Shown here: positions 1 to 17,614 of the stretch, piece after piece
Position numbering within the stretch: the first letter of the stretch is position 1
Layout of the letters: each line of letters starts with the position of its first letter
Source: Escherichia coli
GTDB lineage: Bacteria > Pseudomonadota > Gammaproteobacteria > Enterobacterales > Enterobacteriaceae
Direction: 5' to 3' (one strand)
Assembly (NCBI RefSeq): GCF_024502345.1
Contig: NZ_JALDNN010000001.1
Length of the DNA stretch: 64,000 nt
Translations under genes and position numbers: made by a program
The notes under the pieces: model-generated
What the model saw: only the letters and a program-made list of their open reading frames with translations
What the model was told of the DNA's origin: nothing
Databases searched by the model: none

Positions 1-2
1 GA

Positions 3-989
3 ATGACGCCGTGGGACGATGCCATCGCGCAGTGGAGTTTTGATAAAGGCCTGCCTGCGGGCGCGGGCACCGACACGTTACCCGGCGTGCCGTACCAGAT
101 TTTGCCGTTAAAAAGCGGTGAGAAAACCTACGGGCTGGTGGTGGTGGAACCGGGGAATCTGCGTCAGTTGATGATCCCGGAACAGCAGCGCCTGCTGGAG
201 ACGTTTACGCTGTTAGTCGCCAATGCGCTTGAGCGGCTGACGCTGACCGCCAGCGAAGAACAGGCGCGGATGGCAAGCGAACGTGAACAGATCCGCAACG
301 CCCTGCTGGCGGCGCTTTCGCATGATTTACGCACTCCGCTCACGGTGTTGTTCGGTCAGGCAGAAATCTTAACGCTCGATCTGGCAAGCGAAGGATCGCC
401 CCACGCCCGCCAGGCCAGCGAGATTCGTCAGCATGTGCTGAACACTACCCGACTGGTGAATAATCTACTGGATATGGCGCGAATTCAGTCCGGCGGCTTT
501 AATTTGAAGAAAGAGTGGTTAACGCTGGAAGAAGTAGTCGGCAGCGCGCTGCAAATGCTGGAACCGGGTTTATCGTCGCCCATCAACCTTTCTCTGCCAG
601 AACCGCTGACCTTAATCCACGTTGACGGGCCACTCTTTGAACGGGTGCTGATTAATCTGCTGGAGAACGCGGTGAAATATGCGGGTGCGCAGGCGGAAAT
701 TGGTATCGATGCCCACGTTGAGGGCGAAAATCTACAACTGGATGTCTGGGATAACGGCCCCGGTCTTCCGCCAGGCCAGGAGCAGACGATATTTGATAAA
801 TTTGCTCGCGGGAATAAAGAGTCGGCAGTACCGGGTGTAGGGCTTGGACTGGCAATTTGTCGGGCGATAGTGGATGTACACGGGGGCACTATTACCGCGT
901 TCAACCGACCGGAAGGTGGTGCCTGTTTTCGTGTTACACTTCCCCAGCAAACTGCCCCTGAACTTGAAGAATTTCATGAGGATATGTGA
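3..989 (+). CDS. kdpD: Sensor histidine kinase KdpD, C-terminal 328 aa (5' end lies outside window)
   Basis: ORF open at window edge; H-box (SHDLRTPL) and HATPase motifs (DNGPGL, GVGLGL); stop overlaps kdpE start (ATGA). Confidence 0.95.
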   Translation: MTPWDDAIAQWSFDKGLPAGAGTDTLPGVPYQILPLKSGEKTYGLVVVEPGNLRQLMIPEQQRLLETFTLLVANALERLTLTASEEQARMASEREQIRNALLAALSHDLRTPLTVLFGQAEILTLDLASEGSPHARQASEIRQHVLNTTRLVNNLLDMARIQSGGFNLKKEWLTLEEVVGSALQMLEPGLSSPINLSLPEPLTLIHVDGPLFERVLINLLENAVKYAGAQAEIGIDAHVEGENLQLDVWDNGPGLPPGQEQTIFDKFARGNKESAVPGVGLGLAICRAIVDVHGGTITAFNRPEGGACFRVTLPQQTAPELEEFHEDM

Positions 990-1663
990 CAAACGTTCTG
1001 ATTGTTGAAGATGAACAGGCTATTCGTCGCTTTCTGCGCACGGCGCTGGAGGGCGACGGTATGCGCGTCTTTGAGGCCGAAACGCTGCAACGCGGCTTGC
1101 TGGAAGCGGCAACCCGTAAGCCAGATTTGATTATTCTCGATCTCGGCCTGCCCGATGGTGATGGGATTGAGTTTATCCGCGACCTGCGCCAGTGGAGCGC
1201 GGTGCCGGTGATTGTGCTTTCCGTACGCAGCGAAGAGAGCGACAAAATCGCCGCGCTGGATGCCGGAGCGGATGATTATCTAAGTAAGCCGTTTGGCATT
1301 GGCGAATTGCAGGCCCGTCTGCGCGTCGCTTTACGCCGCCACTCCGCCACCGCCGCGCCAGATCCGCTGGTGAAATTTTCCGATGTTACCGTCGATTTAG
1401 CCGCCCGCGTGATTCACCGGGGTGAGGAAGAGGTGCATCTCACGCCGATTGAATTCCGCCTGCTGGCGGTGCTGCTGAATAATGCCGGGAAAGTGCTCAC
1501 CCAGCGCCAACTCCTTAACCAGGTGTGGGGGCCAAACGCGGTCGAACACAGTCATTATTTGCGTATTTATATGGGACATCTGCGACAAAAACTGGAACAG
1601 GATCCCACCCGCCCCCGCCATTTCATTACTGAAACCGGTATTGGGTATCGGTTTATGCTTTAG
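986..1663 (+). CDS. kdpE: Response regulator KdpE (OmpR family)
   Basis: 225 aa; receiver domain plus winged-helix C-terminus; translationally coupled to kdpD. Confidence 0.95.
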   Translation: MTNVLIVEDEQAIRRFLRTALEGDGMRVFEAETLQRGLLEAATRKPDLIILDLGLPDGDGIEFIRDLRQWSAVPVIVLSVRSEESDKIAALDAGADDYLSKPFGIGELQARLRVALRRHSATAAPDPLVKFSDVTVDLAARVIHRGEEEVHLTPIEFRLLAVLLNNAGKVLTQRQLLNQVWGPNAVEHSHYLRIYMGHLRQKLEQDPTRPRHFITETGIGYRFML

Positions 1664-1673
1664 GCGGTTAAAT

Positions 1674-1772
1674 GCTGGATCCGGCATGAACGCCTTATCC
1701 GGCCTACAAAATCGCTTAAATTCAATATATTGCACCATCCTCGCAGGCCTGATAAGCGTAGCGCATCAGGCA
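1674..1772. repeat. REP/BIME element (Y-type REP, spacer with IHF-like motif, inverted Z-type REP; RIP-like)
   Basis: gccggat..cgccttatccggcctac and aggcctgataagcgtagcgcatcaggc palindromic units; near-identical copies at 9104-9201 and 17516-17614. Confidence 0.8.
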
Positions 1773-1792
1773 ATTCTGTGTTTGTCATACGT

Positions 1793-1826
1793 AAAAAAGG
1801 GCGATCTTGCGACCGCCCTTTTTTTA
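1793..1826. terminator. Bidirectional intrinsic terminator between kdpE and pgm
   Basis: GC hairpin gggcgatcttgcgaccgccc flanked by A-run upstream and T-run downstream. Confidence 0.7.
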
Positions 1827-1836
1827 TTAAATGTGT

Positions 1837-3477
1837 TTACGCGTTTTTCAGAACTTCGCTAACAATCTCAACCGCTTCTTTCTCAATCTGCTTGCGATGT
1901 TCTTCACCGAGGAAGCTTTCGCAGTAGATCTTATATGCGTCTTCCGTGCCTGACGGACGCGCGGCGAACCAGCCGTTGTCAGTCATCACTTTCAGACCGC
2001 CAATAGAAGCACCGTTGCCCGGAGCAGCAGTCAGGCGCGCGGTGATCGGATCACCTGCCAGGGTGCTGGCGCTCACCATTTCCGGAGACAGCTTAGACAG
2101 CGCCGCTTTTTGTGCGGAAGTCGCAGCTGCCTGCAAACGGTTGTAGCTCGGCGCACCAAAGCGTTTTGCCAGTTCGTTGTAGTGTTCCTGCGGGTTCTTA
2201 CCGGTGACAGCGGTGATTTCCGCCGCCAGCAGACACATGATGATGCCGTCTTTGTCGGTGGACCACGGCGTGCCGTCGAAACGCAGGAAGGAAGCCCCTG
2301 CGCTCTCTTCGCCGCCAAAGCCGAAGCTGCCGTCGAACAGACCATCAACAAACCATTTGAAACCTACCGGGACTTCTACCAGCTTGCGGCCCAAGTCATT
2401 GACCACACGGTCGATCATCGCAGAAGAAACCAGCGTTTTACCGACAGCAACATCTTTGCTCCACTGCGGACGATGCTGGAACAGGTAGTTGATCGCCACC
2501 GCCAGGTAGTGGTTCGGATTCATCAAACCTGCCGGAGTGACAATACCGTGACGGTCATAATCCGGGTCGTTAGCAAACGCCAGATCGAACTTATCACGCA
2601 GTGCCAGCAGGCCTGCCATTGCACACTCAGAGGAGCAGTCCATACGGATCGCGCCGTCTTTATCAAGGTGCATAAAGCGGAAGGTTTGATCGACCTGATC
2701 GTTAACGATAGTCAGGTTGAGGTTGTAATACTCGCCAATACGCTTCCAGTATTCGATACCGGAACCGCCCAGCGGATCAACGCCAAGCGTCAGGCCCGCT
2801 TTCTGAATCGCCGCCATATCAACGATATCGGCCAGCCCTTCCACAAACGGCTGCACCAGATCCTGCTCTTTCACATGACCGGATGCCATCGCTTCGTCGA
2901 GGGAGATACGCTTCACGCCTTTCAGGCCATCGGCCATCAGTGCGTTGGCTCTGTCTTCCACCACTTTAGTGACGTTGGTATCTGCCGGGCCACCATTTGG
3001 CGGATTGTATTTGATTCCACCATCTTCCGGCGGGTTATGGGACGGTGTAATCACGATACCGTCTGCCAGCGGGCCACCTTTTTTATTGTGAACCAGGATG
3101 GCATTGGAAACGGCAGGCGTCGGGGTGAAGCCATTGTTTTCCTGCACAATAACATCTACGCCGTTCGCTGCCAGCACTTCCAGTACGGAAATGAACGCAG
3201 GCTCGGACAGGGCGTGAGTATCTTTACCCACATAGCAAGGGCCAGTGATGCCGTTTTTCGCACGTTCTTCAGCAATTGCCTGAGCGATCGCCAGAATGTG
3301 CGGCTCGTTAAAGCTGTGGCGCGCTGCACTGCCACGGTGACCGGAAGTACCGAATTTCACCGCGTGCTCCGCATTCCCTGCTTCTGGTTTCAGTACATAA
3401 TATTGCGCCGTCAGTTGGGCGACGTTAATCAAATCACTCTGTTGTGCAGGTTGGCCTGCACGATTGTGGATTGCCAT
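1837..3477 (-). CDS. pgm: Phosphoglucomutase
   Basis: 546 aa from internal Met (MAIHNRAG...); TSGHRGS and SHNPPEDGG motifs; six-frame ORF carries a 17-codon upstream extension. Confidence 0.95.
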
Positions 3478-3502: not shown

Positions 3503-4048
3503 TTAGATAGTTCCGCAAACCTTCTCAATCAATTCCGCCGGGAATTGCATCGACTGCATGATGTGTTCGATCATGCTGCATTTACGGCCGGTGTTGGTGT
3601 TGGTGATCACCCAATACGGCGTGCCTGGCACATGTTTCGGCTTGGTCTGATTACCATTTTTCAGCAGCGTTTGTTCATCTGCCGCAAAGTAAACGCGTGT
3701 ACGACCGTGCAACGATTCCGTTGCTTCGGCAAACGCCTGGGCGTCAAGAGAATATAGTGTAGACAACAGCAGCATAAAGCGATTGACCGCTCGCTTTTGC
3801 TCTGCGTATTCATCCGAAAGCAGAAGTTCACGCATTGCGCGAACCTTGTCTTTAATCGTTTTGACCGGCTTCGCTTCGACGATAGCAGGTGACGCAACGC
3901 GAACCTCTTTCGTCACCAGAGCAGCAGGCTGTGATGCGGCGGAAAATTTCAACATACGCCGTAAAATGTCGGATGCGCTCTCGCCGATATGCTTAGTGTG
4001 GCTGGCAATATAGCTGTAGAGTTCATCATCAACTTCAATCGTTTTCAT
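3503..4048 (-). CDS. seqA: SeqA, negative modulator of replication initiation
   Basis: 181 aa from internal Met ([13 protein letters not shown]...); ORF track start at 4183 is an N-terminal extension. Confidence 0.92.
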
Positions 4049-5136: not shown

Positions 5137-5430
5137 ATGGCCAAAGAACAAACGGACCGTACGACATTAGATCTGTTCGCGCACGAGCGTCGACCGGGAC
5201 GACCGAAAACAAATCCGCTTTCGCGCGATGAACAGCTGCGTATTAATAAACGCAACCAACTAAAACGCGACAAAGTACGTGGCCTTAAGCGTGTCGAACT
5301 GAAGCTGAACGCGGAAGCTGTCGAGGCGCTGAACGAGCTGGCGGAATCGCGCAATATGAGCCGTAGCGAACTGATCGAAGAGATGTTAATGCAGCAACTG
5401 GCGGCGCTGCGTAGTCAGGGCATCGTTTAA
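5137..5430 (+). CDS. ybfE: Small conserved protein YbfE (annotated as LexA-regulated)
   Basis: 97 aa from internal Met MAKEQTD...; basic, helical. Confidence 0.8.
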
Positions 5431-5569
5431 ATTTCCACTTTCATGTAGCACAGTGTGCAGTCCTGCTCGTTTGCTGATTCCGCAAGACTGCCTGTTCTGC
5501 TATGATTGCCTTTATCCGTGGGCAATTTTCCACCCCCATTTCAATAAGTTTCAAGAGGTTATTTCACTC

Positions 5570-9103: not shown

Positions 9104-9267
9104 GCCGGATGCGGCGTGAACGCCTTATCCGGCCTACAAAAGCACGCAAACTCAATATATTGCAGAGATCATGTAGGCCTGATAAGCGTAGCGCATCAGG
9201 CAATTTAGCGTTTGAAACTGTTTGTCTGTTCCTTGCCGGATGCGACGTAAACGCCCCATCCGGCATA
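9104..9267. repeat. BIME cluster: Y REP, IHF-like spacer, inverted Z REP, plus a third REP unit
   Basis: gccggatgcggcgtgaacgccttatccggcctac ... taggcctgataagcgtagcgcatcaggc ... gccggatgcgacgtaaacgccccatccggcat. Confidence 0.85.
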
Positions 9268-17515: not shown

Positions 17516-17614
17516 GCCTGATGCGCTACGCTTATCAGGCCTACGCAGCTCCTGCAATATATTGAATTTTCATGCTTTTGTAGGCCGGATAAGGCGTTCA
17601 CGCCGCATCCGGCA
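17516..17614. repeat. REP/BIME element (Z REP, IHF-like spacer, inverted Y REP)
   Basis: Reverse-complement copy of the element at 9104-9201. Confidence 0.85.

Follow-up and report, generated by a model that had tools for sequence, protein, structure and literature searches.

In Escherichia coli K-12, the convergent genes kdpE and pgm are separated by a block of several genes that includes speF and potE, the genes for the inducible ornithine decarboxylase and its antiporter. In the stretch of E. coli DNA analyzed here, which comprises 64,000 nucleotides of contig NZ_JALDNN010000001.1 and is referred to as the window, the same two genes are direct neighbors. A preliminary description of this sequence proposed either a lineage that had never acquired the block or a clean deletion with a repetitive extragenic palindrome (REP) at the junction. 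The locus therefore raises the question of how the short form arose, and whether the repeated element between the two genes had any part in it.

Structure of the spacer between kdpE and pgm

The window starts inside kdpD and continues with kdpE, pgm and seqA, followed by ybfF, ybfE, fldA and fur, according to the list of open reading frames and the annotation of strain 873.10. The preliminary description had placed the stop codons of kdpE and pgm 173 bp apart, and the coordinates of the two genes (986-1663 on the + strand and 1837-3477 on the - strand) agree with this. Positions 1664-1836 are exactly the gap between both stop codons and represent the whole intergenic spacer between the convergent units kdpFABCDE and seqA-pgm. 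The locus is composed of the following features.

1..989 (ORF 3..989), + strand: 3' part of kdpD, sensor kinase; 97.7% identity to K-12 kdpD, annotated as kdpD in strain 873.10, truncated by the start of the window
986..1663, + strand: kdpE, response regulator; GTG start codon, TAG stop codon at 1661-1663, 98.7% amino acid identity to K-12 KdpE
1664..1672: flank GCGGTTAAA, 9 nt between the kdpE stop codon and the REP
1673..1708, + strand: Y-type REP; its first base lies 10 nt past the kdpE stop codon
1709..1742: BIME linker of about 35 nt, containing the conserved motif AAATTCAATATATTGCA
1743..1771, - strand: Z2-type REP, inverted relative to the Y REP
1772..1792: short spacer of 21 nt between the Z2 REP and the terminator
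1793..1825: bidirectional intrinsic terminator with A6, an 8-bp GC-rich stem, a 4-nt loop and T7
1837..3477, - strand: pgm, phosphoglucomutase; 99.6% amino acid identity over 546 aa, annotated in strain 873.10
3503..4048, - strand: seqA, upstream of pgm on the same strand

The spacer had been described as one BIME plus a bidirectional terminator, and both consensus matches and folding confirm this composition. The Y consensus is matched at 1674-1707 with 3 mismatches in 34 nt, and the Z2 consensus is matched on the - strand at 1743-1771 with 0 mismatches in 29 nt and has 3 copies in the window; for either consensus, 0.00 matches are expected by chance. The left arm of the Y REP reads TGCTGGATCCGGCA and deviates by 3 substitutions from the canonical TGCCGGATGCGGCG, while the REP hairpin is retained in the predicted fold. 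This REP copy is decaying in its left arm. The element as a whole consists of a palindrome of ~35 nt, a conserved linker and a second, inverted REP, it is extragenic, and it belongs to a family with many copies per genome. A 1.2-kb query containing the BIME had a median of 17 matching places per E. coli genome. It thus has the same build as the known REP/BIME elements of E. coli, with inverted Y and Z REPs around a conserved linker in a multicopy, extragenic element between convergent genes.

The linker motif AAATTCAATATATTGCA resembles an IHF site with one mismatch and recurs in the other BIMEs of the window. The BIME may offer sites for IHF or gyrase. According to a review (PMC3184786), BIMEs are linked to recombination and to the binding of IHF, Pol I, and gyrase. 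Two more BIMEs are present in the window at 9104-9201 and 17516-17613, which have the same order of Y REP, linker and Z2 REP but canonical arms; the motif AAAYTCAATATATTGCA is common to the linkers of these two and of the BIME at 1674-1771. An Rfam search returned sub-threshold matches only. The best of them was naRNA4 / REP325-derived RNA (RF02564), an RNA that derives from a REP; its score of 26.3 bits against a gathering threshold of 59.5 reflects REP resemblance only, and it was rejected.

The terminator is formed by a hairpin at 1799-1818 that is preceded by A6 at 1793-1798 and followed by T7 at 1819-1825. It folds on both strands, with -17.8 kcal/mol (z = -4.7) and -21.5 kcal/mol (z = -5.7), respectively. 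Folding was used for its identification because a simple terminator consensus scan missed the hairpin owing to the stem and loop rules of that scan. The hairpin is kept in every haplotype compared. This single terminator at 1793-1825 ends both units, pgm on the - strand and, in the allele without the block, the kdp operon on the + strand. The BIME is confined to the 3' untranslated region of kdp, where its hairpins can be expected to act as ordinary REPs and to protect the 3' end of the mRNA. Between the Z2 REP and the terminator, positions 1773-1783 (ATTCTGTGTTT) are an indel and are absent from O145:H28 and ETEC4069.

Comparison with K-12 and with the majority arrangement

In MG1655, the order of genes is pgm, ybfP, ybfG (pseudogene), ybfI (pseudogene), potE, speF, speFL, and kdpE, with 5,857 bp between the stop codons of pgm and kdpE (b0688-b0694). 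The alignment to MG1655, which had been proposed as a check, showed that K-12 has no direct adjacency of kdpE and pgm. The statement in the preliminary description that ybfP, ybfG, potE, and speF lie between both genes in K-12 was correct, and the block additionally includes ybfI' and speFL. This block is absent from the window, and searches with SpeF, PotE, YbfP, and YbfG had no tblastn match anywhere within the 64 kb.

The window can be aligned to K-12 over 1-1661 (97.7%) and again from 1673 onward (98.7%), with nothing between. K-12 has the same BIME and the same terminator beside pgm, and from the start of the REP to the stop codon of pgm both sequences differ only by the 3 substitutions in the left REP arm and by 1 substitution in the Z2 REP. 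Since K-12 bears the same element beside pgm, the BIME is a resident of this locus and not a deletion scar. At the junction itself, the window has 11 nt (AGGCGGTTAAA) that occur nowhere in K-12 or in loci of the majority type, and kdpE ends with TAG in the window versus TGA in K-12. As neither the 11 nt nor the TAG stop codon come from K-12, the window allele did not arise by a clean deletion from a K-12-like ancestor. The flank GCGGTTAAA is haplotype-specific; it is absent from K-12 and from majority loci and is present in strain A30, where it precedes a different BIME. The two forms also differ in how kdpE is terminated. In K-12, kdpE has its own terminator behind the TGA stop codon, whereas the terminator behind the TAG stop codon in the window is shared with pgm.

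K-12 is a poor and misleading reference for this locus. In O157:H7 (RIMD 0509939), LF82, and G3/10, which represent the majority arrangement, the order is kdpE(TGA)-speFL-speF-potE-56 bp-pgm without any ybfP, ybfG, ybfI, or BIME, and the interval with speFL-speF-potE has 4,260 bp in O157:H7. Homology of this speF-containing haplotype to the window restarts at 1791, at the terminator. Majority E. coli and E. albertii share kdpDE, pgm, and the terminator with the window. The genes ybfP, ybfG, and ybfI are extra to the K-12 type, and ybfP has been listed among the genes enriched in phylogroup A in a pan-genome study (10.1101/096479). Identity of speF to the K-12 allele is banded, with 1,412 genomes at 99% or more and 3,068 genomes at 90-95%. 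This suggests old allelic lineages or imports at the locus, and the divergence gives the impression of being high for a chromosomal gene of E. coli.

The pseudogene ybfI of K-12 duplicates 142 nt from the 3' end of kdpE (89% identity), and the K-12 arrangement is therefore itself composite. From its sequence, it looks like a speF-containing haplotype fused to one with the order kdpE-ybfG-ybfP, the joint again being marked by REP-like sequence; the pseudogene ybfI would thereby be explained as a relic of this fusion of two haplotypes. That ybfI is a copy of the window-type kdpE end in particular is unsupported, as its distance to every E. coli kdpE allele is much the same, with 11-17 differences in 141 nt. 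At positions 5222-5470 of the K-12 locus, the terminator behind potE gives way to a degenerate copy of the 5' flank of ybfP and a REP stub (GTTTGTTGGCAAATAGTTCGTTATTTATGCCGCATCCGGCA), which directly abuts ybfI.

Loci without speF and the exchange of ybfP

The distribution of the different arrangements was determined in a set of 5,426 complete E. coli genomes, among which the source genome of the window is not included (best match 99.1-99.6%). The following counts were obtained.

speF ORF covered to at least 80%: 5,042 genomes
No speF match at all: 299 genomes
kdpDE and pgm-seqA within 2.9 kb (speF-less locus): about 372 genomes
Junction 45-mer of the window (1648-1692): 89 genomes
kdpE(TAG)-BIME-ybfP-BIME-pgm junction (16b type): 246 genomes

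Hence, speF-potE is an accessory cassette in E. coli, which about 93% of the complete genomes carry at this site and which ~7% do not have there. Genomes with the junction of the window include O145:H28, O139:H1, pig ETEC, and O169:H41, and within the 89 carriers the 45-mer has diverged by up to 4 substitutions. The closest relative is strain 873.10; its spacer matches that of the window without any difference, and the identity over 8 kb amounts to 99.3%. The presence of the EHEC serotype O145:H28 among the carriers, while O157:H7 keeps the cassette, could bear on phenotyping by ornithine decarboxylase and on acid and polyamine physiology. A genome labelled O157:H7, strain TR01 (NZ_CP033605.1), has a window-type kdpE-REP junction with 97.8% identity at 803319-803363, and RIMD 0509939 has speF-potE; TR01 could be a case of a mislabelled serotype or of variation within the serotype.

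The cassette has been lost in E. coli by at least four routes. In MB10 and HS, speF-potE was lost from the K-12 type via an IS1-mediated deletion. In CUWW10, kdpE is of the K-12 type until the last ~20 nt and is thereafter followed by the downstream flank of ybfI. Because the kdpE sequence switches to the ybfI flank within the shared ~20 nt, this strain has lost speFL-speF-potE through a homologous crossover of kdpE with the ybfI repeat. The locus of CUWW10 (1819-2090) reads kdpE-ybfG-ybfP-pgm with an intact DUF2625 gene ybfG and has no IS element. HS, MB10, and CUWW10 have reached the same outcome as the window, namely a locus without inducible ornithine decarboxylase and antiporter, but they are derived from the K-12 type and have kept the TGA stop codon and ybfP.

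The presence of speF at other places of these genomes was addressed with a chimeric query, which consists of the flanks plus a piece of speF on the opposite strand and by which speF-less genomes rank first. For 56 of the 60 top-ranked speF-less genomes, including strain 873.10, a single chromosomal place was found and hence no speF anywhere on the chromosome, which speaks against a translocation of the cassette. A second place was found in the remaining four (TB06051, 33F4, 32F4, and 33E), which are genomes with kdpE-pgm adjacency. In TB06051, where the adjacency has the form kdpE-BIME-pgm, the second place vanishes once the query no longer includes the speF piece. As the second place depends on the speF piece, TB06051 carries a speF-like sequence elsewhere. 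Such divergent speF-like sequences with 60-80% identity to K-12 speF (megablast) are present in about 350 complete E. coli genomes, in 81 of them as the sole speF match and in about 272 beside the native gene. The gene speC was considered as an explanation for the divergent copy and was ruled out; speF and speC are 70.5% identical, and their longest common exact word has 18 nt.

In loci of the 16b type, the gene between the two BIMEs encodes YbfP with 91-93% amino acid identity to the K-12 protein. How this form is connected to the form found in the window can be seen in strain A30. There, kdpE ends with TAG and is followed by GCGGTTAAA and a Y REP just as in the window, with that REP opening a different BIME. 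Y REPs in direct orientation start the repeats at 2526, 2712, and 3361 of the A30 locus (L011), and ybfP is located between the last two of these. The third Y REP opens the pgm-side BIME, and an exchange between the first and the third (35 bp, 97% identical) results exactly in the arrangement of the window. For the ybfP segment, there are thus direct REPs on both sides and a single hybrid REP at the junction, as in a REP-mediated deletion, a pattern that is compatible with loss as well as with gain of the segment. A30 is no direct ancestor of the window allele because its pgm-side BIME has lost the Z2 REP. The Y REP next to kdpE would be the crossover that separates the form without ybfP from the forms with the order kdpE-BIME-ybfP-BIME-pgm, and a 35-bp exchange between direct REPs would remove (or add) about 0.65-0.84 kb with ybfP. 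Gain of ybfP is favored over loss, since two other Escherichia lineages (see below) show the form without ybfP. The locus may serve as a tidy natural example of a REP as a crossover point.

The left REP arm forms a series from TGCCGGATGCGGCG (TUM13936, O169:H41) via TGCTGGATGCGGCG (TB06052) and TGCTGGATCCGGCG (O145:H28) to TGCTGGATCCGGCA (window, 873.10, ETEC4069). As these substitutions are stepwise, the window-type allele is old. A30, which was isolated from a baboon, also has a tandem duplication of 186 bp at 2463-2794, whose copies are 94% identical over 146 nt. Each unit comprises a 3' fragment of kdpE (75 nt in the downstream duplicate), the ~10-nt flank, and a BIME, and this is a second, independent duplicated 3' end of kdpE besides ybfI. 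Shyamala et al. (1990) reportedly described REPs where the copies of tandem duplications are joined.

The situation is different for speF-potE. In K-12, O157:H7, LF82, G3/10, and E. albertii, a search that allowed up to 5 substitutions found no Y REP to the left or right of the cassette, and none of these loci has a REP downstream of kdpE. As none of the speF-containing loci examined has flanking REPs, REP x REP exchange was not the remover of speF-potE in the arrangements examined, and such a deletion is ruled out for these haplotypes. The proposal of a REP at the rearrangement junction therefore holds for the switch point of ybfP, as seen in A30, and fails for speF-potE. Unlike in REP-associated recombination in general, the REP of the window bounds the ybfP cassette only.

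Origin of the empty-site allele

One KdpE scan of GTDB species representatives resulted in 80 loci, with E. fergusonii, E. marmotae, E. ruysiae, and Salmonella not being among them. In 42 of the 80 species loci, kdpE and pgm are convergent neighbors without speF; speF(-potE) is located between both genes in 29, and 9 are undecidable. Every locus sampled from Pantoea, Serratia, Dickeya, Pectobacterium, and Yersinia has an empty site, and the same applies to part of those from Citrobacter, Enterobacter, and Phytobacter. In E. albertii, other Citrobacter and Enterobacter, Kluyvera, Lelliottia, Leclercia, and Atlantibacter, speF(-potE) is present at the site. Both states exist within each of the genera Citrobacter, Enterobacter, Phytobacter, and Escherichia. 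Within Escherichia, E. whittamii Sa2BVA5 (locus 91.6% to the window) and the SCPM-O-B-8794 lineage (94.6%) have an empty site, and their spacers are homologous to that of the window over the full length, with TAG, about 10 nt, the Y REP, the linker, the Z2 REP, and the terminator. They differ from the window by a flank of 10 nt instead of 9, by the canonical left REP arm, and by divergence at the species level.

The stop codon of kdpE is TAG in 11 of 11 REP-type empty alleles and TGA in 8 of 8 sequences that contain speF or are derived from the K-12 type. Flanking SNPs and two terminator variants are shuffled among the haplotypes of the 17 loci compared. Because the split between TAG and TGA is strict while the flanking variants are shuffled, the polymorphism is old and has been recombining freely up to the stop codon.

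Taken together, the window probably contains an inherited, old empty-site allele of a locus whose structure varies within Escherichia and the wider Enterobacteriaceae, and this allele lacks both speFL-speF-potE and ybfP. The allele was neither made in the source strain nor derived from a K-12-like arrangement, and it is common to about 85-89 other complete E. coli genomes with diverse flanking backgrounds. The cassette speF-potE would have been lost once and long ago in an Escherichia lineage, with re-import of a primordial empty site being less likely. An ancient loss within Escherichia is the more economical explanation because E. albertii, most E. coli, and many genera share the insertion site and homologous flanks, the ancestral state of Escherichia being read here from few taxa. 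As suggested by the 17 loci, the kdpE(TAG)-REP allele may then have moved from one lineage to another, with the conserved flanks, kdpDE and pgm, serving as substrates for homologous recombination. At this locus, the predicted phenotype is a loss of acid-inducible ornithine decarboxylation and of putrescine/ornithine antiport; the routes that depend on speC and on speA/speB are encoded outside the window.

That speF-potE was never acquired is unlikely. The spacer would then stem from a primordial adjacency of kdpE and pgm in the Enterobacterales, either vertically or by import. The frequency of adjacent genes without speF among the species loci and the uniformly empty site in the five genera from Pantoea to Yersinia are in agreement with such an origin, as is the complete lack of speFL or potE remnants in the spacer. 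It is opposed by the presence of the cassette at the exact site, with homologous flanks, in E. albertii, in about 93% of E. coli, and in many genera, and vertical descent would demand a polymorphism older than these genera. In addition, the spacer beyond the terminator consists mostly of multicopy E. coli REPs, unlike the short, terminator-only spacers of other genera. From the preliminary description, the absence of the block has stood; of its two scenarios, lack of acquisition is less economical than an ancient loss, and a recent deletion from the K-12 type is contradicted.

The latter scenario, a recent clean deletion of the K-12 block from ybfP to speFL in the strain or its immediate lineage, mediated by the REP at the junction, is very improbable. 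It would account for the missing block and for a REP located 10 nt from the kdpE stop codon, and the ybfP segment shows that exchange between REPs takes place here. However, it leaves the 11 nt absent from K-12 and the different stop codon unexplained, and the REP that it requires downstream of kdpE is missing from K-12, O157:H7, LF82, G3/10, and E. albertii alike. A recent event is also contradicted by the spread of the junction over 89 genomes with up to 4 substitutions in 45 nt and by the homologous spacers in two other Escherichia lineages. That the adjacency is an artefact of assembly or collapse can practically be dismissed, as nothing beyond the general capacity of repeats to mislead assemblers speaks for it and the identical arrangement exists in dozens of independently finished complete genomes that have been annotated by NCBI with kdpE and pgm as neighbors.

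An old empty-site allele of this kind is an ordinary accessory-genome polymorphism, which is already visible in public annotated genomes and is unsurprising to a specialist. Literature searches for a published description of the kdpE-pgm polymorphism gave nothing specific apart from the enrichment of ybfP in phylogroup A. A more far-reaching reading of the site, which we regard as rather doubtful, is that of a long-lived trans-species polymorphism of speFL-speF-potE that is kept by selection, in combination with a REP that lowers KdpE synthesis via ribosome stalling. If this were true, production and export of putrescine would pay off in certain niches and be a burden elsewhere. Concerning the second part of this reading, Liang, Rudd and Deutscher (2015) are said to have found that REPs within 15 nt of a stop codon cause ribosome stalling and lower synthesis. 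By analogy, the REP located 10 nt past the kdpE stop codon could reduce the synthesis of KdpE.
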